From: Candidatus Latescibacterota bacterium
GTDB taxonomy: Bacteria > Latescibacterota > UBA2968 > UBA8231
Assembly (NCBI GenBank): GCA_963422735.1
Contig: OY730476.1
Coordinates: 2,528,001-2,592,000 of the forward strand
DNA length: 64,000 nt
Direction of reading: 5' to 3'
The position numbers and the translations under genes were made by a program. Shown here piece after piece: positions 2,155 through 51,196 of this stretch; position 1 is the first letter of the stretch, and the number at the start of each line of letters is the position of its first letter. Under the pieces are notes generated by a model, which was not told the origin of the DNA, ran no database searches, and saw nothing but the letters and a program-made list of their open reading frames with translations.

Positions 2155-3042
2155 CTATGGACGCTCGTATTTGGGGTCCAGTGCATCGCGTAAACCGTCG
2201 CCTAGAAACGAAAAGCCCAGCATAGTCAGGGCGATGGCGACAGTCGGGAATAGCGCTAGATGCCAGTAGATGCGGACATAGGCGTTGGAGACGCCGACCA
2301 TCTTGCCCCAACTGGCCATCGGATCGTTAATCCCCAAACCGATAAAGCTCAAACCCGCTTCGGCGAAGATGGTGCCTGGGATACCAAAGCTGACAGCGAC
2401 TAGGATTGGGGTCAGCGCGTTGATAAGTAGGTCGCGGAAGATAATTTTGCGCGTCGGCACACCCAGTGCCCTTGCCGCTAGGGCGTATTCTTGCTCGCGC
2501 AGGGTCAAAAATTGTGCCCGCGTCAGCCGGGCGATGCCGATCCAGCCAGTGATGCCCAAGGCGACGACAATAGTCGCCAAGCCGCCTTCGAGGACCGAGA
2601 TGATGAGGATGGCAAAGAGCAAGCTGGGAAAGGCGGTCATCACGTCAATGATGCGGGTGACGACAAAATCGAGTCGCCCGCCGAAATAGCCAGCGAGGGC
2701 ACCGACCGGCACCCCGATTAACACGGCGAGGGCCTGGACCAGCAGACTGACGGTTAGCGAGGTGCGGGCACCGTAGATTAGGCGGCTGAGATAGTCGCGT
2801 CCAACCTCGTCGGTGCCCAGCAGGTGATCCGGGTGTTGCAAAGGCGCGAGCAAAACCTTGTCGAAATAAGCGTGGTCGTAGGGGAAGGGCGCGAGAAGAT
2901 CGGCGAAGATTGCCAAAAAGGAAATCACGCCGACAATGGCCAGGCCAATGACGGCGAGGCGGTTGCGCACAAAACGCCGTCGGGCGTCGGCCCAAAAGGA
3001 GCGGTGGGCACCGTCGATTCCGTCGTCGAGGGACTCGGTCAT
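2155..3042 (-). CDS. oppC: Oligopeptide ABC transporter permease (OppC/DppC family)
   Basis: HLLGTDEVGRDYLSRLIYGAR, EAA-like loop EYALAARALG, C-terminal GDGLRDALDP; ATG at 3042 overlaps the upstream stop. Confidence 0.9.
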   Translation of the reverse strand: MTESLDDGIDGAHRSFWADARRRFVRNRLAVIGLAIVGVISFLAIFADLLAPFPYDHAYFDKVLLAPLQHPDHLLGTDEVGRDYLSRLIYGARTSLTVSLLVQALAVLIGVPVGALAGYFGGRLDFVVTRIIDVMTAFPSLLFAILIISVLEGGLATIVVALGITGWIGIARLTRAQFLTLREQEYALAARALGVPTRKIIFRDLLINALTPILVAVSFGIPGTIFAEAGLSFIGLGINDPMASWGKMVGVSNAYVRIYWHLALFPTVAIALTMLGFSFLGDGLRDALDPKYERP

Positions 3043-4007
3043 CAGGCTTCTTTTCTGCCGCCGAGTTTGACGCGCGGGTCGATGAGAGTATAGGCGATAT
3101 CGGTCAGCATATAGGTGATACCCCACAATAGGGCCACCAGCAGGAAAGTCGCCATGATCATCGGGTAGTCGCGGTTGAGGGTGCTGGTGACGAAGAACTT
3201 ACCGAGGCCATTGATGCGGAAGATGGTCTCGATAAAGATGCTGCCGGTGATGAGGTTGGGTATTTCGGTGCCCAGCGCAGTGACCATCGGGATCTGTGCA
3301 TTGCGCAGCACGTGGTGCCGCATGACCTTTGCTTCGCTCAGGCCCTTGGCTCGGGCGGTGCGCACATAGTCCTCGCCGATGACATCGACGATGCTGGCGC
3401 GGGTGTAGCGAGCAATGATCGCCATCGGTGCCAGCGCGTAGGCTAAGACCGGCAGAATCCAATCCGAGCACAGGATATCGCCGCAGAGGCAGGATCCGGA
3501 ATTGCTCCAGCCGCCGGTGGGCAGCCACTGCCGTGCAACCCCGAAAAACAGGATAAACCACATCGCCACCACGAAATTGGGCACGGTGACGCCGAGCATC
3601 GCGCCAAAGGTCACGATATTGTCAATCCAACTGTTCTGGCGATAGGCAGCTAACATGCCGGCGGCTATCCCACAGCTAAAGGCCACGAGGATCGTCATCA
3701 CGCCGACTTGCACAGTGACGATCCAGGTCTTGCCAATCAGTGCGGCGACTGTGGTCTGCGGCTGCTGGTAGGGGATGCCGAAGTCGAAGCGAACCGCGTG
3801 GCTCATGTAGTTGAGGTATTGCTGCCAGACGGGTTTGTCGAGGCCGTATTTGCGCTCAATATTCTCGCGTGCGGCTTTGGGCAGTTTGGCCTGTTGGGTG
3901 TCGAAGGGGCCGCCTGGCACCGAGTGCATCAGTGCGAAAACGATCATCGACACTGCGAGTAGCACAAAGGCCAGGGCGATCAAGCGGCGGGCCAGATAGA
4001 AAAGCAT
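3042..4007 (-). CDS. oppB: Oligopeptide ABC transporter permease (OppB/DppB family)
   Basis: PGGPF, YGLDKPVWQQY, DYVRTARAKGL, IDPRV motifs. Confidence 0.92.
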   Translation of the reverse strand: MLFYLARRLIALAFVLLAVSMIVFALMHSVPGGPFDTQQAKLPKAARENIERKYGLDKPVWQQYLNYMSHAVRFDFGIPYQQPQTTVAALIGKTWIVTVQVGVMTILVAFSCGIAAGMLAAYRQNSWIDNIVTFGAMLGVTVPNFVVAMWFILFFGVARQWLPTGGWSNSGSCLCGDILCSDWILPVLAYALAPMAIIARYTRASIVDVIGEDYVRTARAKGLSEAKVMRHHVLRNAQIPMVTALGTEIPNLITGSIFIETIFRINGLGKFFVTSTLNRDYPMIMATFLLVALLWGITYMLTDIAYTLIDPRVKLGGRKEA

Positions 4008-4051
4008 CGCCTATGGCCCCGGGTGCGCTCTTTGGCAGTGATCGCCGGTCA

Positions 4052-5755
4052 TTATTGCGCCATGCCGATGTATATATCGCCCCACATCCAGTCGTTGCCG
4101 GAGTGGTTGCCGTAGGTCCCTTCTGGCCCCGGCTCGCGGATGCTGGCACCACGAACCGTGGGCCGAAACAGGTCGCCGGCCCAGCGGTGGGCGATAAAGG
4201 CTCCGCCGACATCGTCGACGAGAAGCCGCTCGGCATCGCGGAAAAGCTGGTCGCGGCGCTGGGGGTCGCCCATTAAGTTGCTGGCCTCGTCTAGGATGGC
4301 GTCGAAGCGTTGGTTGCGCCAGGAGTGGCGACCGCTGCTGACCCAGATGCCGAGCAAGTTGATGGGGTCGGCAAAGTCGATGCTATAGGCGACGGCACCC
4401 AGCGCAATGCCAGTGGGTCGCTCGTGTAGGGCGTTCATAAAGACTTTGTTGTCTTTGTTCGAGACTTGGATCGAGACGCCCAAACACTGGGAGATCGAGG
4501 CAGCGGCAGCTTGATAGACTGAGGCAATGCCGGGATTTTCGTTGCGCAACCACATCACCTGCGGCGGAAAGCTAACACCGTCAGAGTAGCCGGCTTGGGC
4601 TAGGTGTTCCTTAGCTAGGCCACAGTCGAAGCGCTGATAGTGGGCAAGTTGACCCTGTACATCGGCGGCGGGAAAGCCAGGCATGAGCATGGAATGGGCG
4701 GGCATGGCCTTGATCTCGCCGTAGACGCCCTTGACGATGGCCTCGCGGTCGATGGCGTGGGCGAAGGCCTTGCGCACATTGATGTCGTTGAAGGGTGGGT
4801 TGTGCGCGTCGAAGAAGACATAGTCGGTGCCGATCAGACCGGGGCGCAAGTAGTTGGCTTGCAGCTCGGGGTCGCGCTGGATGGTGGCGAAATCGGCTGG
4901 CGACAAGTCGTTGAAGTTTAAGGTGTCAATTTCGTTGTTGAGATAGGCGATAAAATAGGTCGCTGGCGACAGGTATATCCCCTCGATCCGCGCCAACCTC
5001 GGCGGTCGGTAGCCCGCGTAGTGCGGGTTGGCCTTGAAAACTACTTTGAAACCGTGGTCGAAAGACTCCAGCATAAAGGGGCCGGACGAGACTGAGGTGG
5101 TCGGGTCGTTGTTGTAGTAGGGGCCGTGCGTCTCCAGTGCCTTCTTCTGCAGCGCGAAGGCGTATTTCATGATTTTGGGCAGTGGCGGAAACACGCCCTT
5201 GGTCACAATCTCGAGGGTGCGGTCGTCCACGGCGCGGACCCCCAATGCTTCGATAGGTAGTTTTCCGGCAATGACCTCGTCCCAGTTCTCGATCCCACCC
5301 TTATCGATGAAAGTGTAGTACCAGGCGAAATCCCAAGCGTGATCGGGACTGGCACTGAAGCGGAAGGTTGCGACGTAGTCGTGGGCGGTGACAGGGGTGC
5401 CATCGCTCCACATCAGACCCTCGCGCAAAACAAAGGTCCAAGTCACTCCGTCGTCGGCGACCGACCAACTTTCAGCGGCACCAGGTTGGGGATTTTGCGC
5501 CTTGTCGAAGGTGACCAACGGATCGTTGAAGAGATTGGACCCGCAATAGGGCTGATAGACGCTGACCGAAAAGTCGAAAGTGATCGAGTTGGCGGTATTG
5601 TTGCAGGGGATGCGGTACACCTGCTGGTCATAGGGTAGCGCGTCGGGCGGCAAGTCCAGACTAAGGATGGTCTTTTCTTGGGCACTGCCGGGGCGGATGA
5701 AAAGCGCGAAAATAGCGATCAACAGCGGGACGGAAGTTGTAATGTTGTTTTTCAT
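4052..5755 (-). CDS. oppA: Peptide ABC transporter substrate-binding protein (family 5)
   Basis: Signal peptide; AESWSVADDGVTWTFVLREGLMWSDGTPVTAHD family-5 signature; PPFNDINVRKAFAHAIDR. Confidence 0.9.
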   Translation of the reverse strand: MKNNITTSVPLLIAIFALFIRPGSAQEKTILSLDLPPDALPYDQQVYRIPCNNTANSITFDFSVSVYQPYCGSNLFNDPLVTFDKAQNPQPGAAESWSVADDGVTWTFVLREGLMWSDGTPVTAHDYVATFRFSASPDHAWDFAWYYTFIDKGGIENWDEVIAGKLPIEALGVRAVDDRTLEIVTKGVFPPLPKIMKYAFALQKKALETHGPYYNNDPTTSVSSGPFMLESFDHGFKVVFKANPHYAGYRPPRLARIEGIYLSPATYFIAYLNNEIDTLNFNDLSPADFATIQRDPELQANYLRPGLIGTDYVFFDAHNPPFNDINVRKAFAHAIDREAIVKGVYGEIKAMPAHSMLMPGFPAADVQGQLAHYQRFDCGLAKEHLAQAGYSDGVSFPPQVMWLRNENPGIASVYQAAAASISQCLGVSIQVSNKDNKVFMNALHERPTGIALGAVAYSIDFADPINLLGIWVSSGRHSWRNQRFDAILDEASNLMGDPQRRDQLFRDAERLLVDDVGGAFIAHRWAGDLFRPTVRGASIREPGPEGTYGNHSGNDWMWGDIYIGMAQ

Positions 5756-6801
5756 CTGTCTAATAAATCGGCTGCCTGCACTGGAGTACTAGGCTGGCGC
5801 AGCAGACAGGCGACTTGGCGTCCGGCACCGATAGTGGTTAGTTGTGGGATGGTCGTTTCGCATTGTGCTTGGCGCTCGGCGCAGCGGGGGTGGAACGGAC
5901 AGCCAGTGGGGATCGCAGTCGGGTTGGGCGCGTCACCGTCGAGGAGGATTCTCGTCCGGCGCTTTTGGGGGTTGGGGACGGGTGCCGCCGAGAGCAAGGC
6001 TTGGGTATAGGGGTGCAAAGGGGTGTCATAGAGCGCAGCTTTGGGGGCCAATTCGACGATCTTGCCCAGATACATTACGGCGACCCGGTCGGAGATGTGG
6101 CGCACGACGCTGAGATCGTGGGCGATAAACATATAGGTCAACCCCATGTCGGCTTGGATGTCCTGTAGCAGGTTGACGATCTGGGCTTGGACCGAAACAT
6201 CGAGAGCAGAAACTGGTTCGTCGGCGACGATAAAACGCGGCTCGACAGCTAGGGCGCGGGCGATGCCGATTCGCTGGCGCTGGCCGCCGGAGAATTCGTG
6301 CGGGTATCGATGAGCAGCCACAGCGGGCAAGCCGACCATTTCCAGCAGTTGCGCGACTCGGGCACCGACCTCTTTGCCGCGTGCGAGATGATGGGTGGTG
6401 ATTCCTTGGGCAATGATCTTGTGTACTGTCAGCCGCGGGTTTAGCGAACTGTAGGGATCTTGGAAGACTACCTGCATTTGGCGGCGGATAGCGCGCATGG
6501 GCCCACCGGACAGACGGCTGATGTCGACACCGGCGAAATGCACTTGGCCAGCGGTGGGTTCGATCAAGCGCAGGATCAGACGCCCGAGGGTGGTTTTACC
6601 ACACCCGCTCTCGCCGACTACGCCGAGGGTTTCGCCCTTGTGGACGGCCAGCGACACGTCGTTGACGGCCCGCACTTGACCGGTGGGCCGGCCCCAGCGG
6701 CTTTTGCGGATGGCGAAGTGCTTGGTCAGACCGATGGTGGCCAATAGCGGGTCCGCGACTTGGAGCAAGGGCGTAGTACTGGTGGCTAAAGCTGGCAGCA
6801 T
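5752..6801 (-). CDS. oppF: Oligopeptide ABC transporter ATP-binding protein (OppF/DppF family)
   Basis: Walker A GESGCGKT, FSGGQRQR, DEPVSALD, C-terminal HPYT...GCPFHPRC; start codon uncertain. Confidence 0.9.
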   Translation of the reverse strand: MLPALATSTTPLLQVADPLLATIGLTKHFAIRKSRWGRPTGQVRAVNDVSLAVHKGETLGVVGESGCGKTTLGRLILRLIEPTAGQVHFAGVDISRLSGGPMRAIRRQMQVVFQDPYSSLNPRLTVHKIIAQGITTHHLARGKEVGARVAQLLEMVGLPAVAAHRYPHEFSGGQRQRIGIARALAVEPRFIVADEPVSALDVSVQAQIVNLLQDIQADMGLTYMFIAHDLSVVRHISDRVAVMYLGKIVELAPKAALYDTPLHPYTQALLSAAPVPNPQKRRTRILLDGDAPNPTAIPTGCPFHPRCAERQAQCETTIPQLTTIGAGRQVACLLRQPSTPVQAADLLDR

Positions 6802-43856: not shown

Positions 43857-44911
43857 GCACGCCGCTGATCGAAGCGCGGGGTGCCAGCCGAGCCTTTGGC
43901 GGCGGCGTGTTCGACCGGCAGCAGATCGTCGCAGTCGCCGACGCCTCGCTGGTAATCCCGGAGGATGAGCCTGTGGTCGTAGCCATTGCTGGCGAAAGCG
44001 GCAGCGGCAAAACCACCTTGGCGCGCCTGCTGCTGGGTATCCTACCTCCGACCGGCGGATTGGTGCGCTACCAAGGCACGGAATTGCGCCATCTCGACGC
44101 CAAGGTGCGCCAGATATTCCGCCGGCAGGTGCAGGCCGTGTTTCAGGATCCCTTTGAGGTGTTCAATCCGTTCTATCGGGTGGACCACCCCCTAACGGTG
44201 CCGGTTGCCAAGTTCTTCCCGGAATTGTCGCGCCACGAGCGGCGGCAGCGGATCGAGGAGGGGTTGCAAGCGGTCGGCTTGCGGCCGGAGGAGACCCTCG
44301 GGCGCTATCCCCATCAGCTAAGCGGCGGTCAGCGCCAGCGCATCATGGTGGCGCGAGCGCTGTTGCTCGACCCGCGCGTGATCGTGGCCGACGAGCCCGT
44401 GTCGATGGTGGACGCCTCGTTGCGCGCTACCATCTTGGAGACGCTGTCCCGCATCCACCGAGAGCGCGGCATCAGTCTTGTATACATCACGCACGACCTG
44501 ACTACCGCGTATCAGCTGAGCCACACCATTCTCGTCATGTACCAGGGTGCGGTGGTCGAGGTGGGCGACGTGGAGCAGGTCATCAAAGTGCCGCAACACC
44601 CCTACACGCAGCTACTTGTGAATTCTATCCCGCTGCCGGACGCAAAACGCCGCTGGGGAGCAGGCTCTATTGATGGCACGCCTAGCGGCGCAGTGAGGTC
44701 GCCGACGGTGGAAGAGGGAGCACTGGCCCCGAGCACCAGCGGCGGCTGCGCCTTTGCCGAGCGCTGCCCCCACGTCATGCCCCGCTGTCGCCAGCAGCGT
44801 CCGCCGCTGGTGCAGACCGATGCTGGTCGCGCTGCTGCCTGCTATCTCTACGAGGACGGGGCGGTGCTGTCGGAAGAGCAGGTCGCCGGCCTGTCCTACG
44901 GAGGTGGGTAA
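43853..44911 (+). CDS. Peptide-type ABC transporter ATP-binding protein (DppF family)
   Basis: GESGSGKT, LSGGQRQR, DEPVSMVD, HPYT, GCAFAERC. Confidence 0.9.
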   Translation: MSTPLIEARGASRAFGGGVFDRQQIVAVADASLVIPEDEPVVVAIAGESGSGKTTLARLLLGILPPTGGLVRYQGTELRHLDAKVRQIFRRQVQAVFQDPFEVFNPFYRVDHPLTVPVAKFFPELSRHERRQRIEEGLQAVGLRPEETLGRYPHQLSGGQRQRIMVARALLLDPRVIVADEPVSMVDASLRATILETLSRIHRERGISLVYITHDLTTAYQLSHTILVMYQGAVVEVGDVEQVIKVPQHPYTQLLVNSIPLPDAKRRWGAGSIDGTPSGAVRSPTVEEGALAPSTSGGCAFAERCPHVMPRCRQQRPPLVQTDAGRAAACYLYEDGAVLSEEQVAGLSYGGG

Positions 44912-45099
44912 GGGATGTGGTGCCCTGAACTGCAAGCCACCCGCGACGACATCGCGATTCGCCGCATCCGCATCGCCAAAGACCGGCTCGACAACGCAGT
45001 CGCGTGCGCGGCTCGGCAATCTCGACGAGACGACGAGATGATCCCGTTGATTGCCCTAGCTGGAGTGCTCAATAAGTCCGAGCGACAGGAAGGAGTCTG

Positions 45100-46251
45100 A
45101 TGGACGTCTTCGCGTTCCGCAAGGAGCTTATTTCAGAATACGAACGCTTCTCTCGAAGTTTCACCCAGATCCGGGCGGCAGAGGCGGCAGACATTCACAA
45201 AGCTGTTGATGAGGCTTACGCCAGTGGCCGTTTCTGGCCCGCTCCCCTCATCCAGTTGAACCCAAATTTCGTGCCGGATGGGTCTATTGACGAGTTTGTA
45301 GCAAAGGGCGCCCTCGAGGCGGAGTGCGCGAAGATCTTTCGCATCAAGAGCCCAACCGACCCCCTCGGCCAACCGCTCGTGTTGCACAAACACCAAGCCG
45401 AAGCCATAGCTATCGCCCGACGAGGCGAGAGCTATGTCCTGACAACGGGTACAGGATCCGGCAAATCGCTCAGTTACTTCATCCCCATTGTCAATGACGT
45501 ATTGCGGCGGAAGAAGTCCGGCGACCCCTGCAAGGGCATCTGTGCCATGGTTGTCTATCCGATGAATGCCCTGTGCAACAGCCAGTGCGAGGAGTTGGAG
45601 AAATTTCTCAAGCGCGGCTATGGCGAGGGTAGCCAACCGGTGACCTTTGCCCGTTATACCGGCCAAGAAACTAACGAGGAGCGGGAGCACATTGCGAAGA
45701 ATCCTCCCGACATCCTCCTGACGAACTACGTCATGCTCGAGTTAATCATGACGAGGTTCATAGAGACCGATAAAGCAGTGCGGCAACACGCCGCCGGGCT
45801 ACGGTTTCTGGTCTTGGACGAATTGCACACGTACCGGGGGCGTCAAGGGGCTGACGTGGCCATGCTGGTCCGGCGCGTGCGGGAGCGGTTCAACGAGAAT
45901 CTCCTCTGTATCGGCACCTCTGCCACCATGGCTTCAGAGGGTAAGGCCGAGGAGCAGAATGCGGCTGTTGCGAACATCGCCAGTCGGCTGTTCGGGGTCG
46001 CTGTCAGCGCGGACAACATCATCACCGAAACCTTGGAGCCCGTTACCAACGACGAAACGCCTAGCGATCCATCCAGCCTGAGACACGCCATCGAGACAGG
46101 CGTACCGGCGAGCCCAACCTACGATGAACTTTCAAGACATCCGGTTGCAGCTTGGGTGGAACGGAAGCTCGGCCTGGGGGATCATTGCCAACGGCTCGAA
46201 ACTGCGTCTCCTCCGCGACAACGCCAGCCTGACTCGGCCCGCCTGCATTGA
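45100..46251 (+). pseudogene. DEAD/DEAH-box helicase, N-terminal domain only (truncated near 46175)
   Basis: TGTGSGKS, YPMNAL, ARYTGQ, PPDILLTNYVMLE, DELH, SAT; no helicase-C domain. Confidence 0.8.
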
Positions 46252-49200
46252 GGCCGACTTGGACCTCATGTTCGCAGAGGCACTCTATGCGGATTTTGCG
46301 GCTTTCTGGCTCACCGTCCACGCCAGCCGTTTGCAGCCAACCAATGGCAAGCCGTCTAGTTGCATCATCGAAAGCTGGCGCACCCAAGCTCATCAGACCG
46401 GTGAACGCGCCTTAGACAATCTCCGCGACGGCGTCACCCAAGCCCTACGGCAGATCGGCAACGGCTTCCTACAGCATCCGGGCAACGATGCGCTGCGGAC
46501 CAACCTCGACGCGGGCAAGCTCTCGCCCGAGGGCTATTTCCAGCAGCTTCTCCGGTTCATTTACCGCCTGCTCTTTCTCTTTACGGCCGAAGAGCGCGAT
46601 CTCCTGCATATACCGGGGGCCACCAACCAACAGCGCACCCTGTTCGCCGAGGGGTATTCTCTTTCTCGGTTGCGCGACCGCGCCCTGCGCCGACGCCATT
46701 ACGACCACCACCACGATCTCTATGAGGGCCTGCGGATTACCTTCGGTGCGCTCGCCCAAGGGGTGTCTGCTCTGGGGCTGCCGGCTTTAGGCGGCTTGTT
46801 CCGCTCGGATCAGTGCCCGGATTTGGACGGGGCCGCCCTGGCCAATGAGCGGCTTTTGGAAGCGGTGAGGAATCTCGCTTTCTTCCGCACCGACTCCGCC
46901 CTTGCCCGCGTCAACTACCGGGACATGGGCACCGAAGAGCTCGGTTCGGTGTACGAAAGCCTCTTGGAGCTCCAGCCGGTGGTAGATGTGAACGCTGCGC
47001 CTTGGGCTTTTGGCTTTGTTGGCGATGGAAACGGAGAGCAGGCCGGAGGCTCGGCGAGAAAGCTCACGGGCTCGTACTACACGCCCGCTACGCTCGTGAG
47101 CGAGCTAATCAAATCAACGCTCGATCCCGTGCTCGCCCAAGCGGTCGCTGACCGTCCCGAAGATCCGCGGGCCGCCATTCTCGCCTTAAAGGTCATCGAT
47201 CCGGCATGCGGCTCCGGGCATTTCCTCCTAGCGGCGGCACGGCGCATGGCTGCCGAGATTGCCCGTATCGAGGCTGGTATGAGCAGATCCGGCGAGACTG
47301 CACACCAGCATGCGCTGCGGGACGTGGTGCAAAACTGCATCTACGGGGTGGATCGGAACTCGCTGGCGGTTGAGCTGTGCAAGACCGCCCTGTGGATCGA
47401 AACCGTGCAGCCGGGCAAGCCGCTGACCTTTCTCGATGCGCACATCTTGCACGGCGACAGCCTCGTCGGCGTTCTCGACCCGGAGATTATGGCAAACGGC
47501 ATTCCGGCCGCAGCGTACAAGCCCTTGACCGGCGATGATAAGGCCGTCTGCACCGAGCTCAAAAAGCGCAACCGCCAAGCGGGCGACGCGGTGCAGGGCG
47601 ATCTGTTCAATAAAGACAGCCTGCTCGAAGTGGCGGTGGCTACCTTAGACCTCGACGACATGCCCGAGGAAACGATTGAGGATGTAGAGAAAAAGCGCGC
47701 CGCGTATGCAGCCATGCGCGTACAGGAAGATCGCACCCAAGAGGAACTGCGGGCGAATTTGTTTGTCGGGGCGTATTTTGCCCAAAAGACGCGGGGCAGC
47801 ACGGACGCGGTGCCGATCACCGAGGATTTCAACCGCCTCGACGCCGGCTTGGTCATGCGGCCCGGCGTCTGTGATGCGGTTGGCAAGCTAGCCCGGGAGC
47901 ATCGCTTCTTTCATTGGCATCTGGCCTTTGCCGAGATCGTGCAGGATGGGGGGTTTGACGTGGTGTTGGGAAATCCGCCGTGGGAACGCATCAAGTTGCA
48001 GGAGCAGGAGTTTTTTGCGTCGCGGTCGCCGGACATCGCCCATGCTCCGAACAAGGCCGCCCGCGACCGGCTTATCAAGCAACTAGCCCTCGAAGACGCC
48101 CTGCCTGCTGAAAAGGCCCTTTTTGCCGAGTTCCAAACCGCACAACGGCGAGCCGAGGCCACTTCTCAGTTTGTCCGCACCGGGGATAGATTCCCGCTTG
48201 CCGGCATTGGCGATGTCAACACGTATGCGGTATTTGCCGAGTTGTTCTTCGAGTTGATCGGTTCGCGAGGGAGAGCGGGCCTGATCGTACCTTCTGGCAT
48301 TGCCACCGACCATTCGACCAAAGCGTTTTTCGACGAAATTGTCACCAACAAAAGACTCGTCAGCCTCTACGACTTTGAGAACCGGGAGAAAGTTTTCCCA
48401 AGCATAGACAGCCGGATCAAATTCTGCCTGCTCACGCTGACCGGCACCGAGCATCCCTGTCCACAGGCCGAGTTCGCCTTCTTCCTGCACCAAGCCGAGC
48501 AACTGCGCGATCCCGAGCGTCGGTTTGCGTTATCAGCGGAAGATTTCGCCCTGTTCAATCCCAACACCCGCACCTGCCCCATCTTCCGCACCCGGCGCGA
48601 CATGGAAATCGCCCGCAAGATGTACCGCCGGGCCGGCGTCCTGTGGAAGGAGGCGAAAGGCGGCGAGGAGGAAGTGAACCCTTGGGGCGTGAAGTTCCAG
48701 CGCATGTTCGACATGTCCAATGACTCCGGCCTCTTCCGCACCCGCGAGCAGTTGGAAGAAGCGGGCTGGCATCTTGTGGGCAACGCGTTCATGCACCCTT
48801 CGACGAGCAAGGAGCACGAGCAGTCCGTCGCCGGCATAGGCGACGCAACGAGCGGCCGCTACCTCCCCCTGTACGAAGCCAAGCTGTTCCACCAATACGA
48901 CCATCGCTTCGCCACCTTTGACGGGGTTTCGGAAAAAGACCGCAAAGGCGGCAAGGCCCGCCCCATGACGGCGGCGGAAAAAGCGGGCGCTCAGGCCGTT
49001 GTCCTTCCTCGATATTGGGTGCCAGAAGAAGAAGTGCAAAAAAGACTTGACAAAACCGGAACGACCGAATTTTTGACGACCGACAGGACAGGACAGGACA
49101 GGACAGGACAGGACAGGACAGGACAGGACAGGACAGGACAGGACAGGACAGGACAGGACAGGACAGGACAGGACAGGACAGGACAGGACAGGACAGGACA

Positions 49201-49357
49201 GGACAGGACAGGACAGGACAAGTCCTATTACGTCGCACTACGAGCAATCACAAGAGCTACGGACGTCCGCACGACGATCAGTGCAGTCGTGCCGCGAAAC
49301 GGACTGGGCAAGGGAACAGTCATCCGACTCAAGAATGGGAGTTGGCTTTGCGACTGA
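46124..49357 (+). CDS. Eco57I-like/type IIG N6-adenine DNA methyltransferase, phase-variable, N-terminus probably deleted
   Basis: RKLTGSYYTP, motif I DPACGSGHFL, motif IV GFDVVLGNPPW, YDFENR, NPNTRTCPIFR; contains (TGQDR)n. Confidence 0.88.
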   Translation: MNFQDIRLQLGWNGSSAWGIIANGSKLRLLRDNASLTRPACIEADLDLMFAEALYADFAAFWLTVHASRLQPTNGKPSSCIIESWRTQAHQTGERALDNLRDGVTQALRQIGNGFLQHPGNDALRTNLDAGKLSPEGYFQQLLRFIYRLLFLFTAEERDLLHIPGATNQQRTLFAEGYSLSRLRDRALRRRHYDHHHDLYEGLRITFGALAQGVSALGLPALGGLFRSDQCPDLDGAALANERLLEAVRNLAFFRTDSALARVNYRDMGTEELGSVYESLLELQPVVDVNAAPWAFGFVGDGNGEQAGGSARKLTGSYYTPATLVSELIKSTLDPVLAQAVADRPEDPRAAILALKVIDPACGSGHFLLAAARRMAAEIARIEAGMSRSGETAHQHALRDVVQNCIYGVDRNSLAVELCKTALWIETVQPGKPLTFLDAHILHGDSLVGVLDPEIMANGIPAAAYKPLTGDDKAVCTELKKRNRQAGDAVQGDLFNKDSLLEVAVATLDLDDMPEETIEDVEKKRAAYAAMRVQEDRTQEELRANLFVGAYFAQKTRGSTDAVPITEDFNRLDAGLVMRPGVCDAVGKLAREHRFFHWHLAFAEIVQDGGFDVVLGNPPWERIKLQEQEFFASRSPDIAHAPNKAARDRLIKQLALEDALPAEKALFAEFQTAQRRAEATSQFVRTGDRFPLAGIGDVNTYAVFAELFFELIGSRGRAGLIVPSGIATDHSTKAFFDEIVTNKRLVSLYDFENREKVFPSIDSRIKFCLLTLTGTEHPCPQAEFAFFLHQAEQLRDPERRFALSAEDFALFNPNTRTCPIFRTRRDMEIARKMYRRAGVLWKEAKGGEEEVNPWGVKFQRMFDMSNDSGLFRTREQLEEAGWHLVGNAFMHPSTSKEHEQSVAGIGDATSGRYLPLYEAKLFHQYDHRFATFDGVSEKDRKGGKARPMTAAEKAGAQAVVLPRYWVPEEEVQKRLDKTGTTEFLTTDRTGQDRTGQDRTGQDRTGQDRTGQDRTGQDRTGQDRTGQDRTGQDKSYYVALRAITRATDVRTTISAVVPRNGLGKGTVIRLKNGSWLCD
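49086..49220 (+). repeat. Simple sequence repeat (GGACA)27, preceded by one CGACA unit
   Basis: Perfect 5-nt tandem repeat of 135 nt inside the methyltransferase. Confidence 0.98.
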
Positions 49358-49560
49358 TCACAACAGCAACCAACCAGAGAACAGTGATAGCGTCTCTTAT
49401 TCCAGACACGGGCCTTGGTCACAAAGGAGCCGTCATCACGCTGGACGTTGGATCATTCCTTTTCGAAAAACCACCAATGCCACGAATGAGCGGACCGGCA
49501 TCGCTTCGTTCGTCCCAAGGTCAGGCATGAGCGATCGGGCACCACTTCTCTGTATCGAAG
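49220..49560 (+). repeat. Three tandem paralogous cassettes of about 37 codons, one per reading frame
   Basis: YVALRAITRATDVRTTISAVVPRNGLG / ELALRLITTATNQRTVIASLIPDTGLG / IIPFRKTTNATNERTGIASFVPRSGMS; aligned CGA codons at 49241, 49351 and 49464. Confidence 0.85.
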
Positions 49561-50060
49561 ATGCTGAGGCTGCGGCACTGTTTGTCTCGACCCTCAATTC
49601 ACTTGTGCTGGACTTCGCGGCTCGGTCTGCGGTTGGCGGTACAGACCTCAGTTTCTTCATCGTCAAGCAGCTCCCCGTCCTGCCACCCGAAGCCTATCTC
49701 GAAGAGGCTTTCTCCGGCCTCAGATACGTCGAACTCATCGTCCCTCGCGTCTTAGAGCTTACGTACACCGCCGCCGACCTCGAAGGTTTCGCCCGCGACT
49801 TAGGCTACGACGGCCCGCCCTTTTCCTACGACGACGACCGCCGCCACCGCCTCAAGTGCGAGCTGGACGCCATCTTCGCGCACCTATACCAGCTAGACCG
49901 CGACGACCTCGAATGGATTTTAGACGCGCCCGAGCCGAGCGAGTCCTTCCCAGCCCTCAAACGCAACGAGATGAAGGAGTTCGGCGAATACCGCACCCAA
50001 CGCTACGTCCTCTGCGCCTACGACCAATTGGCCCGCGGTGAGCTCCCAGACCTGACGTAA
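49281..50060 (+). CDS. C-terminal part of the methyltransferase (currently out of frame with the N-terminal part)
   Basis: LNSLVLDFAARSAVGGTDLSFFIVKQLPVLPP, ELDAIFAHLYQL, E..EFGEYRTQR; the frame is open back into the repeat. Confidence 0.85.
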   Translation: MQSCRETDWAREQSSDSRMGVGFATDHNSNQPENSDSVSYSRHGPWSQRSRHHAGRWIIPFRKTTNATNERTGIASFVPRSGMSDRAPLLCIEDAEAAALFVSTLNSLVLDFAARSAVGGTDLSFFIVKQLPVLPPEAYLEEAFSGLRYVELIVPRVLELTYTAADLEGFARDLGYDGPPFSYDDDRRHRLKCELDAIFAHLYQLDRDDLEWILDAPEPSESFPALKRNEMKEFGEYRTQRYVLCAYDQLARGELPDLT

Positions 50061-50145
50061 TGCAGGCGACGGACTGCTCGACAGGCTCAACGAGCGGAGG
50101 GAGGTGGGCTGGAAGCATCTGTACCAAACCAATTTCAGCTTCTAA

Positions 50146-51196
50146 CTGACGTTGCTCAGTGCCGCTACTCGGCTTCGTCTAACAGGTGCCTGAAGGCTTC
50201 GAGGCTGGGCACTTGTATGGCCGCCCGAAACAACTGCTTGAGGCGCTGCACATCGTCGATGGCCCCAAGGCGGGCGGCCAACGGATCCGACGCGGCCAGC
50301 CCAAAGCGAATCTCCAGCACGTCGAGCAGATCTTCAATGGCGCGTTCTCGGCCTCCTCGCTCAATGCCTTGCTCAAGGGCCTTTTCCGTGAAATACTGCA
50401 CTACCGACGATTCGTACATGGTCGCCTCCGAGATGATGGTCATAATCGTTTCTAATCGATACACCAAACCGCTCAAAATAGCAAGGTCGGCTAAGTAATT
50501 CGCCTTGAGGGCCTCGGCCATCGGCACCCCTTGCGCCCGGTGGATACACTGGCGCAACCACGCCTCGGCATTCATACCTGCCGGTCGCTGCATCAACGGC
50601 GCAAAGGGGATCAAGCCTGAATGCCCCTCGTCGAGCATGCGTTGGCCGTCTAGCTCAATCAGCCGAATCACCTTGTATTGCACCAACACGCGGTAGCCGT
50701 GTCGCTCTTGGAGATAGTGCCCCGGATCACGCTGGCCGGCGTCGGGACGCAGATAGATGACGTGGGAATAGATCGGCAGCCCGTGCTGCTCAATGCCGCG
50801 CCCGATATAGCCGGCTATGCGCTGCGGCATGGGTGGTTTGCTGTCGGTGGTTTGAAATTCGTGATGGACCAACGCTTCGTCGCCGCCGATTTGCACGTAG
50901 ATGAGGCTGTCGGTGCGGTGTGTTTCGACAGTAGGTTGACGCCGAGGACCTCAAGGTCGTCTTGCTGGAGGGCGAAGCGGGCAAAGTCAGCCGGGTAGGT
51001 GTGGATGAGATGCTTGGCGATAGTATCGAATTCGGCCATGAGCCATGCCTTGGGTTGCGGGTGGGGTGGTATCCGCAACGGGCAAGAATTGTGCCAAGGC
51101 AGCGGTTCAGAGGGGACGAGAAGGATATGAGGTGTTGGAGTATAGCGGAGAGGATGCAGGGATGGGAAGTTAGGGGGAAAAGCTGCGTAACATCTG
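50146..51196. mobile_element. Putative TIR-bounded element (1051 bp) carrying an Rpn-family gene
   Basis: Ends CTGACGTTGCTCAGT and GCTGCGTAACATCTG resemble the MITE TIRs; flanks TTCTAA and TTATAA (5/6 match). Confidence 0.55.
50165..51039 (-). pseudogene. Rpn/YhgA-like PD-(D/E)XK nuclease, frameshifted near 50940
   Basis: MAEFDTIAKHLI..PADF in one frame; HRTDSL..HHEFQT..MPQRI, VIYL and EQGIERG..LEIRFG in another. Confidence 0.72.

Follow-up and report, generated by a model that had tools for sequence, protein, structure and literature searches.

The window analysed here is a stretch of 64,000 nucleotides (nt) from a Candidatus Latescibacterota bacterium (contig OY730476.1, positions 2,528,001 to 2,592,000, forward strand). 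It holds a gene for a gamma-class N6-adenine methyltransferase with a long (GACAG)n repeat in its coding region, followed by three paralogous segments, one per reading frame, which we call cassettes C1, C2 and C3. We find the combination of a repeat and several cassettes in a whole clade of related genes. Substitution patterns indicate that purifying selection acts on the spare cassettes, each in its own frame, and stops are kept out of the frames leading to them. Since a stop-start overlap (ATGA or GTGA, in short RTGA) is conserved at one place of the cassette region, we favour the view, with about an even chance of being right, that repeat length switches the enzyme among fused, split and further-split or truncated forms. 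Textbooks present repeat-driven phase variation as an on/off device, and a change of specificity in restriction-modification and BREX-like systems is believed to require recombination.

Three reading frames behind the repeat

The methyltransferase open reading frame (ORF) spans positions 46124 to 49357 (plus strand) in its present, C1 state and encodes 1077 amino acids (aa) counted from an internal ATG, without the first ~166 codons of the gene. Based on Pfam, NCBIfam and PADLOC, its product is a gamma-class N6-adenine methyltransferase of the Eco57I/MmeI/PglX/DrmMI kind, with Pfam matches to Eco57I (4e-20), N6_Mtase (1.8e-9) and MmeI_Mtase (2.1e-8). The catalytic motif IV, NPPW, is read in the same frame at 47972 to 47983 (plus strand) and is invariant in the family alignment. 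A preliminary description of the locus had labelled the enzyme type IIG, i.e., Eco57I-like. The gamma-class core agrees with this. No nuclease is among the Pfam matches at E<=1 of the 1447-aa ortholog described below and of five single-cassette homologs, a search that a divergent fold may escape, and the type IIG label is therefore doubtful.

Tandem Repeats Finder places a perfect tract, (GACAG)27.8, at 49082 to 49220 (plus strand; period 5, 100% matches), inside the coding region. The pentanucleotide tract of the preliminary description is thus real, with its start corrected by one base from 49081. The unit length is not a multiple of three, and the tract encodes the peptide DRTGQ in each of the three frames. 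The present frame continues from (DRTGQ)n into ...KSYYVALRAITRATDVRTTISAVVPRNGLGKGTVIRLKNGSWLCD and is closed by a stop at 49355-49357. The second frame reads ...EWELALRLITTATNQRTVIASLIPDTGLGHKGAVI... up to a stop at 49528-49530, and the third reads ...RWIIPFRKTTNATNERTGIASFVPRSGMSDRAPLL... and stays open until the stop at 50058-50060. The shared cassette motif is found at 49241, 49351 and 49464, i.e., with spacings of 110 and 113 nt; C2 thus lies one base back in frame with respect to C1 and C3 one base further back. Translation of the forward frames hence confirms three paralogous cassettes that are each shifted by -1 frame, as had been described.

All three cassettes lie on the plus strand and are recognised by a cassette hidden Markov model (HMM). 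C1 (49223 to 49357, class beta, 50 bits) consists of 38 codons to 49336, followed by 6 codons and the TGA at 49355-49357. C2 (49333 to 49530, class gamma, 57 bits) has 38 codons to 49446, followed by 27 off-frame codons and the TGA at 49528-49530. C3 (49446 to 49559, class delta, 62 bits) runs on into the C-terminal module. From the repeat to the own cassette, the respective frames are stop-free for 3 (C1), 39 (C2) and 76 (C3) codons, such that the open approach to C2 and C3 holds in the window. Deriving the unit arithmetic by hand from the coordinates, one additional unit leads into the C3 frame and one unit less into the C2 frame. That is, the protein ends shortly after C1 with 3n units, which is the present state, and shortly after C2 with 3n-1 units; with 3n+1 units it carries C3 and is full length, i.e., 1313 aa for 28 units when counted from ATG 46124. 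This reproduces the assignment made earlier.

The tract is the sole pentanucleotide repeat of at least 30 nt in the whole genome (4.95 Mb) and one of 34 perfect repeats of such length. When codons are redrawn synonymously with the C1 and C2 peptides fixed, the C3 frame of the window is open in only 3.9% of 5000 redraws. The three-frame arrangement is more than chance.

Some other candidate signals were discarded. Antisense ORFs over the region were regarded as spurious, since substitution patterns fit the plus-strand frames. An internal start upstream of C3 (ATG at ~49338) is not conserved, with Met in L002 and L003 (two loci of the same layout, see below) and none in L021 and L023. An inspection by eye of ~49330-49360 revealed no slippery heptamer for -1 ribosomal frameshifting from C1 to C2. 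A promoter/terminator scan of 44800-50400 remained at the level of shuffled sequences, with 1 promoter-like signal (shuffled mean 1.5) and 7 terminator-like signals (5.7).

Repeats and cassettes across the family

Long homologs were studied among the best 120 of 7996 matches (E<=0.001) to the C-terminal half of the protein. DNA was sampled from 13 loci of named genome records, 45 metagenome contigs and 20 loci from relatives of the window's genome, and was scanned with an anchor HMM (PRYWVPEEEV region) and the cassette HMM. The anchor is absent in ten sources of the main scan and in eight loci of the scan of relatives; two repeat-bearing rows have too little downstream DNA, and one row shows the anchor without a cassette.

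Three cassettes, spread over two or three frames, are present in all 17 rows (15 distinct) that carry a repeat and sufficient downstream DNA, and also in the additional locus L063. Units in the repeat-bearing loci are 4, 5, 8 or 10 nt long, and L012 has a C12 homopolymer run. No repeat and a single cassette are observed for 30 rows (25 distinct cassette peptides) and 8 further rows, all of them more distantly related; in such single-cassette loci, the cassette follows in frame a few codons past the anchor. On the protein level, 69 of the best 120 homologs show a periodic peptide at the repeat site (period 5, 7, 8, 10 or 11), built from many different units. According to their record titles, the named loci come from Latescibacterota, Longimicrobiales, Alpha- and other Proteobacteria and further groups. 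In a tree built from the 500 aa upstream, the repeat-bearing loci are united in one clade (support 97/97) with respect to seven single-cassette outgroups.

Two layouts can be distinguished. Layout II (window, L002, L003, L021/L022 and L023) has C1 of class beta, C2 of class gamma and C3 of class delta with the C-terminal module, in three frames. Layout I (L004, L005, L006, L007, L011, L012, L017, L024 and L063) has a C1 of class alpha in one frame and an epsilon cassette, a zeta cassette and the C-terminal module in the next, while its third frame is empty. The three-frame cassettes expected among homologs from the preliminary description are thus kept in layout II, and layout I, which most relatives have, uses two cassette frames only. 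Stops before C2 or C3, which would have spoken against the arrangement, are found in none of the 5 layout II loci.

The two layouts are intermingled on the gene-body tree, repeat units differ between close kin, and near-identical proteins differ in unit number and even in layout. For instance, AEPSR units number 11, 8, about 4 and 2 in members of one 90%-identity cluster, and kin of one genus carry GACAG x27, GACAG x14, GACAA x20, CGGAT x20 and CACG x5. Proteins P0066 and P0249 share 88-100% identity per 40 columns outside the cassettes and the next ~60 aa, and 78, 49, 40 and 75% within this part. Given the interspersed layouts and the near-identical proteins of different layout or unit number, the region behind the repeat is exchanged by recombination. 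In their natural states, 33 of the best 120 homologs are full length, 41 end at most 80 aa past a cassette, 45 are without a cassette and 1 is different. The three frame outcomes are thus about equally common in nature.

Several loci show further variation at this site. L003 carries two adjacent octanucleotide repeats at 5746-5893, (AGACTACA)7 and (TCGGAAGG)11, and in L007 the same unit occurs in two phases, (GAGCA)16 followed by (GCAGA)14; both represent complex repeat turnover at a single site. L016 has a second complete zeta cassette with C-terminal module (1544-2200) downstream of its delta module, whose frame is closed from the repeat; this may be a silent spare or a leftover of module insertion. 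In L019/L020 (3204-3600), stops close the frame to the C-terminal module and an extra stretch separates the cassettes, which looks like a decayed variant. The full-length homologs P0071 and P0092 have alpha joined in frame to the epsilon/C-terminal module and no evident repeat. These hybrids suggest that one cassette can take the place of another and that indels or recombination can lock a state.

Selection on spare cassettes and open frames

For each cassette class, we computed the ratio of non-synonymous to synonymous differences (pN/pS) from pooled pairwise Nei-Gojobori counts over 24 codons. In their own frames, the spare cassettes show values of 0.39 (alpha), 0.46 (beta) and 0.22 (gamma), and the cassettes of full-length proteins show 0.37 (delta), 0.40 (epsilon) and 0.30 (zeta). 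The respective values in the two shifted frames range from 0.69 to 2.45, with an own-frame pS of 0.57-0.79. The purifying selection that the preliminary description had asked for in C1- and C2-type cassettes is thus found, i.e., own-frame pN/pS is below that of the shifted frames.

The frames leading to the cassettes were compared with synonymous redraws; the background rate of off-frame stops is 422 per 14183 codons. For layout II, the C3 frame is open in 2.1-5.6% of the redraws per locus and is actually open in 5/5 loci. The read-through frames of layout I are open in 13-68% of the redraws and in 8/8 actual loci. As far as codon-level comparison can show, purifying selection maintains each spare cassette class in its own frame, and the read-through frames are kept stop-free.

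A conserved stop-start overlap and the C-fragment

In the window, the tetranucleotide ATGA at 49527 to 49530 (plus strand) combines the stop of the C2 frame (TGA) with an ATG that is codon 28 of C3 (M of GMSDRAPLL). This ATG opens an ORF of 177 aa (49527 to 50060, plus strand; MSDRAPLL... to the end), called the C-fragment, which also exists as a separate database protein (P0121). It comprises the final 11 C3 codons, the helix and strands aligned with the end of the PglX recognition domain (see below) and the C-terminal helices.

ATGA or GTGA is present at cassette codon 28/29 in 14/14 delta and epsilon cassettes and is absent at this position from 8 zeta cassettes, 5 beta cassettes, 5 gamma cassettes and 30 single-cassette rows, which have [VI]-G where delta and epsilon have [MV]-[SN]. 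In 11/14 cases, the preceding frame stays open up to the RTGA; in L003, L021 and L005, it ends 8, 2 and 7 codons earlier. The ATG or GTG of the overlap lies in the full-length frame and opens the entire remainder of the protein. Furthermore, an xTGA overlap sets the reading frame back by one base, which equals the step between successive cassettes in all loci.

Database proteins start at the same place. Short homologs, i.e., proteins of 112-357 residues that match C3 and the C-terminal module, were inspected for the best 120 of 1672 matches (E<=1e-10). At least 90 of these 120 begin exactly at the RTGA start codon, either with MSDRAPLL... (177-192 aa) or with MSNKAPLL... or MNHKAPLL... (about 220 aa).

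The empty frame of layout I also ends at an RTGA, at alpha codon 22 (8/8). This motif is present in 6/30 single-cassette rows as well and may thus be a by-product. Four codons upstream of the delta ATG lies an arginine, encoded by AGG in four loci and by AGA in one; AGR accounts for 7/79 arginine codons in the window's gene body, and this usage is suggestive only. A strong ribosome-binding site in front of the RTG was considered and rejected, as only a weak signal was found.

Position of the cassettes within the recognition domain

We compared the family profile (A3) with a profile of the BREX-1 PglX family (A4), whose seed was the PglX of a relative (match to PDB 8c45 at 1.8e-230). The hhalign alignment (Prob 97.9, E 6.2e-13, 384 columns, template 559-983) extends from the methyltransferase core to the C-terminus. 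The C-terminal part alone is aligned with the same place of PglX (E 6.6e-4), and so is the block 'helix LN(S)...(Q)LP' alone (E 2.5e-3). The recognition domain of PglX comprises residues 662-849 and the matched block lies at its end; S838, the counterpart of MmeI R810, is inside this block, and T802, the counterpart of A774, shortly before it (PMC11341690). For MmeI, the recognition domain is divided into subdomains 621-745 and 746-825, the second of which reads base pairs 3-6 (PMC4833311).

According to this alignment, the cassette is the stretch leading into the last recognition-domain helix, at the start of the second subdomain, and the repeat is placed near the junction of the two recognition subdomains. 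Its aligned position, shortly ahead of where the PglX recognition domain ends, makes the cassette a plausible recognition element. This is in accordance with the earlier placing of target recognition in the C-terminal region, here the C-terminal half of the PglX/MmeI target-recognition domain. The core of the cassette motif, T-N/D-x-R-T, is nearly identical across the cassette classes.

The C1 and C2 proteins lack ~170-185 residues that are kept by all 30 single-cassette homolog rows, each of which has at least 218 aa past the anchor. The missing residues include the helix and strands that are aligned with the end of the PglX recognition domain, which on this profile evidence shows the C1 and C2 proteins to be cut inside the recognition domain.

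Other searches were restricted to the core. The sequences of the window proteins gave nothing useful against solved structures, and the family profile matched solved structures (CamA, StySJI M, BsaXI, MmeI, PglX/BrxX and BseCI) in the core only. At E<=1, no Pfam family covers the region past the methyltransferase core.

Proposed mechanism and alternative explanations

The conserved RTGA overlap favours a switch among fused, split and further-split or truncated forms of the enzyme, a view that we hold with as much doubt as confidence. A hypermutable non-triplet repeat sits at a tolerant junction of the recognition domain, and since each cassette copy lies one base back, every repeat length leads into one of the copies. 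From this arrangement the switch would work as follows. The fused form would be the full-length protein. The split form would combine an N-terminal part, with its own cassette at the end, and a C-fragment that is translated separately via stop-start coupling, and the third form would be more split or simply truncated. The forms would then differ in the recognition segment used as well as in dose or tethering of the C-terminal part, which would alter activity and perhaps the target range.

A more far-reaching version, which we regard as rather unlikely, assumes that slippage re-cuts the gene into one, two or three coupled cistrons and in this way provides up to three methylation or defence specificities without a recombinase. 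Here, a different copy of the recognition subdomain's first hairpin (C1, C2 or C3) would be combined with the same remainder, either fused or in trans, and successive xTGA overlaps would funnel ribosomes by -1 per step toward the C-terminal module.

Several observations weigh against a fused/split switch. First, the cassettes were found by own-frame protein similarity, which biases pN downward. Second, the overlap is not uniform: the C1 frame of layout II ends with TTGA, a start-type overlap, in only 3/5 loci, with CTGA in the window and with CTAA in L023. Moreover, any TGA is preceded by A, G or T with a 3 in 4 chance, and the RTGA could be a by-product of an [MV][SN] peptide that was inherited once by delta and epsilon. 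Third, the Shine-Dalgarno-like signal is weak. Using the duplex energy with a generic anti-Shine-Dalgarno string, the mean is -4.2 kcal/mol compared to -2.8 kcal/mol for 370 internal ATG/GTG (one-sided Mann-Whitney p=0.015, with loci that are not independent), and the window's RTG site reaches -3.3 kcal/mol, i.e., the 44th percentile. Fourth, the two in-frame cassettes in the full-length protein of layout I are unexplained by such a model. Fifth, the repeat-bearing loci form one clade, and the association of repeat and multiple cassettes is thus a single evolutionary event, i.e., one invention and not many. Finally, the register of the cassette relative to PglX differs between the two hhalign runs, and we therefore claim no residue-level equivalence to the specificity positions of MmeI or PglX.

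The alternative that survives best, somewhat unlikely in our estimate, is a plain ON/OFF/OFF switch. Here, only the C3 frame would be active and the spare cassettes would keep the truncated N-terminal part folded, harmless or complex-competent, with no C-fragment involved. It is in line with the early stops of the C1 and C2 frames and with the importance of the missing C-terminal part, which the at least 218 aa past the anchor in all 30 single-cassette rows indicate. The roughly equal frequencies of the frames (33/41/45 of the best 120) resemble those of ordinary contingency genes, and the weak ribosome-binding signal before the internal RTG fits as well. However, such a switch provides no reason for the RTGA at codon 28/29 (14/14 versus 0/48) and leaves the own-frame constraint on gamma unexplained, which has the lowest pN/pS among the classes (0.22). 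Furthermore, a protein that is cut inside the recognition domain has no obvious selectable activity.

The preliminary description itself had proposed that the three frames yield three enzymes with different DNA-contacting cassettes, and that slippage alone thus provides three methylation or restriction specificities. We consider this improbable. The location of the cassette within the C-terminal half of the PglX/MmeI recognition domain, as given by the profile alignment, speaks for it, as does the base pair 3-6 reading of the matching MmeI subdomain (PMC4833311). So do the mosaic nature of the cassette region, which is the part replaced between near-identical proteins, and the in-frame alpha/epsilon hybrids P0071 and P0092, for which cassettes look interchangeable. 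However, the C1 and C2 proteins are no cassette-swapped versions of the C3 protein: they stop 6 and 27 codons past the cassette and are ~170-185 residues short. Since they lack the remainder of the subdomain and the C-terminal helices in cis, three specificities would be workable only through the split form. In addition, the T-N/D-x-R-T core is nearly the same in all classes, and layout I offers two cassette frames only.

Quite improbable is the further proposal that C1 and C2 are silent donors for recombination or gene conversion into the expressed cassette, with incidental frames. The interspersed layouts on the gene-body tree, the mosaic replacement between P0066 and P0249, the silent downstream module of L016 and the existence of hybrid cassettes agree with it. 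On the other hand, silent donors need neither open approach frames, which are expected in 2-6% of the redraws and observed in 5/5 loci, nor codon-level constraint in the own frame, and their co-occurrence with a frameshifting repeat is left unexplained. No recombinase was detected by the general Pfam, NCBIfam and PADLOC scans of the window's island and the loci of three relatives, none of which was a search aimed at recombinases. Silent donation may still act as a slow, additional process beside the switch, since mosaic and hybrid forms exist.

A neutral relic, i.e., a ~110-nt tandem duplication near a slippery tract with decaying copies, would place the copies in different frames automatically by its non-triplet period and fits the decayed window locus, but is highly improbable given that at least 16 distinct loci, with record titles naming several phyla, have conserved copies, which have no internal stops and show own-frame pN/pS of 0.22-0.55 at a near-saturated pS of 0.57-0.79.

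For hundreds of genes from several phyla, all three frames behind the repeat are used for selected coding. This raises the questions whether contingency genes can have 'OFF' frames that yield designed products, whether a defence methyltransferase can toggle between fused and split forms, and whether slippage alone can alter the recognition of a defence system. It also concerns annotation, where such loci are now called 'truncated methylase' and 'hypothetical protein'. As the host clade has not been cultured and the window's copy is broken, the value lies in the family and not in the window locus.

Relation to known systems

Repeat-driven phase variation of methyltransferases, truncated versus fused products as in NgoAV, and C-terminal switching are known already. 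Within the available parts of the literature, we found neither a description of paralogous recognition-segment copies in alternative frames behind a repeat nor one of a frame-by-frame stop-start funnel.

The NgoAV type I system of Neisseria gonorrhoeae shares a repeat in the specificity-determining part of a methyltransferase system. Depending on the length of a polyG tract in hsdS1, truncated, fused or no active forms result, and the respective paper cites earlier work on a changed sequence specificity (PMC9577141). It differs by its homopolymer, its separate S subunit and a truncation at the natural junction of two recognition domains; its description, as available, has neither paralogous segment copies in other frames nor a conserved stop-start overlap. 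Likewise, repeat-driven phase variation is known for pglX, which is also a gamma-class NPPY/NPPW methyltransferase and the specificity factor of a defence system, but there the switching is on/off and the available text does not mention multi-frame cassettes (PMC11341690).

Phasevarions of type III mod and type I hsdM/hsdS genes have non-triplet (tetra- or pentanucleotide) coding repeats with copy numbers that vary by strain as well. In contrast, their repeats are located near the 5' end and act ON/OFF, and specificity is given by allelic recognition domains (PMC5909438, PMC7383803). The homopolymeric tracts of Helicobacter canadensis are similar in that a repeat near the 3' part swaps the C-terminal sequence without silencing, but paralogous selected cassettes in alternative frames are not described in the available text (PMC2823697). 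The shuffling of hsdS by inversion or recombination also offers several alternative recognition modules per locus with stochastic choice, but uses inverted repeats, usually a recombinase, and separate silent genes instead of overlapping frames (PMC7394358, PMC7672463). Finally, the (AG)n repeat of mod1 in Mycoplasma bovis has OFF frames that are not silent, which challenges the binary view (bioRxiv 10.64898/2026.04.01.715767). There, frameshift suppression leads to low-level full-length protein, and the text at hand reports no dedicated coding in the other frames.

Host island and local deletion

At the same site as in the window, a syntenic relative carries three genes, flanked by a dipeptide-type ABC ATPase gene on one side and an SBP_bac_5 gene on the other. 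They encode a 1760-aa YprA/DruE-like helicase (DEAD, Helicase_C, MZB), a 953-aa SNF2 helicase that is DpdE/DrmD/BrxHII-like (DpdE 5.7e-210, BrxHII 4.8e-48) and a 1447-aa methyltransferase. The same order of YprA-like helicase, BrxHII-like SNF2 helicase and PglX-like NPPW methyltransferase is given for the ARMADA type I defence system in a paper whose main text contains none of the terms 'phase varia', 'frameshift' or 'truncat' (PMC12458937). We thus call the site an ARMADA-type-I-like defence island, an assignment by gene order and domain families alone.

The window copy differs from ARMADA type I in that it lacks two and a half of the three genes; it is a remnant of such an island and not a complete member. 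Of the first helicase, only the N-terminal ~353 codons are left at 45100 to 46172 (plus strand; Pfam DEAD 1.7e-26, PADLOC DruE3 7.6e-45), and the fragment ORF reads on out of context to a stop at 46251. The blastn alignment with the relative's intact helicase gene ends at 46172 of the window. Here, helicase codon ~353 is joined to methyltransferase codon 166 (junction at 46172 to 46175, plus strand): window positions 44801-46172 match positions 503-1854 of the relative's L086 (reverse complement) and 46175-47985 match 2895-4708 of its L002. Compared to the relative, ~7.7 kb are deleted, i.e., the remainder of the helicase, the entire SNF2 helicase gene and the N-terminus of the methyltransferase. 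The helicase and methyltransferase frames are not joined across the junction.

The ratio of non-synonymous to synonymous substitution rates (dN/dS) between window and relative is 0.22 for the methyltransferase body, 0.13 for C3 with the C-terminal module and 0.18 for the helicase fragment, and the deletion therefore looks recent. Given the ~7.7 kb lost from the island, the local switch is most likely a recent and no longer functional relic in the C1 state.

A 223-bp direct repeat of 96.4% identity bounds the relative's island (L086, reverse complement, 586-808 and L002 6836-7058), and the window keeps its left copy only, at 44932-45114. This hints at a boundary left by insertion or duplication of the island. 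Adjoining the island, a 243-aa ORF on the minus strand (50165-50896) is without a Pfam, NCBIfam or PADLOC match and has 70.6% DNA identity in the relative.

Outside the window, 31 of the genome's 34 perfect repeats of at least 30 nt belong to one heptanucleotide family (ACCACTA/AGTGGTT/ACTAACC/GACCACA...) whose arrays reach 23 copies. Stop triplets occur in many of the units, most of the arrays are found outside long open frames, and this dispersed family looks unrelated to the methyltransferase switch.

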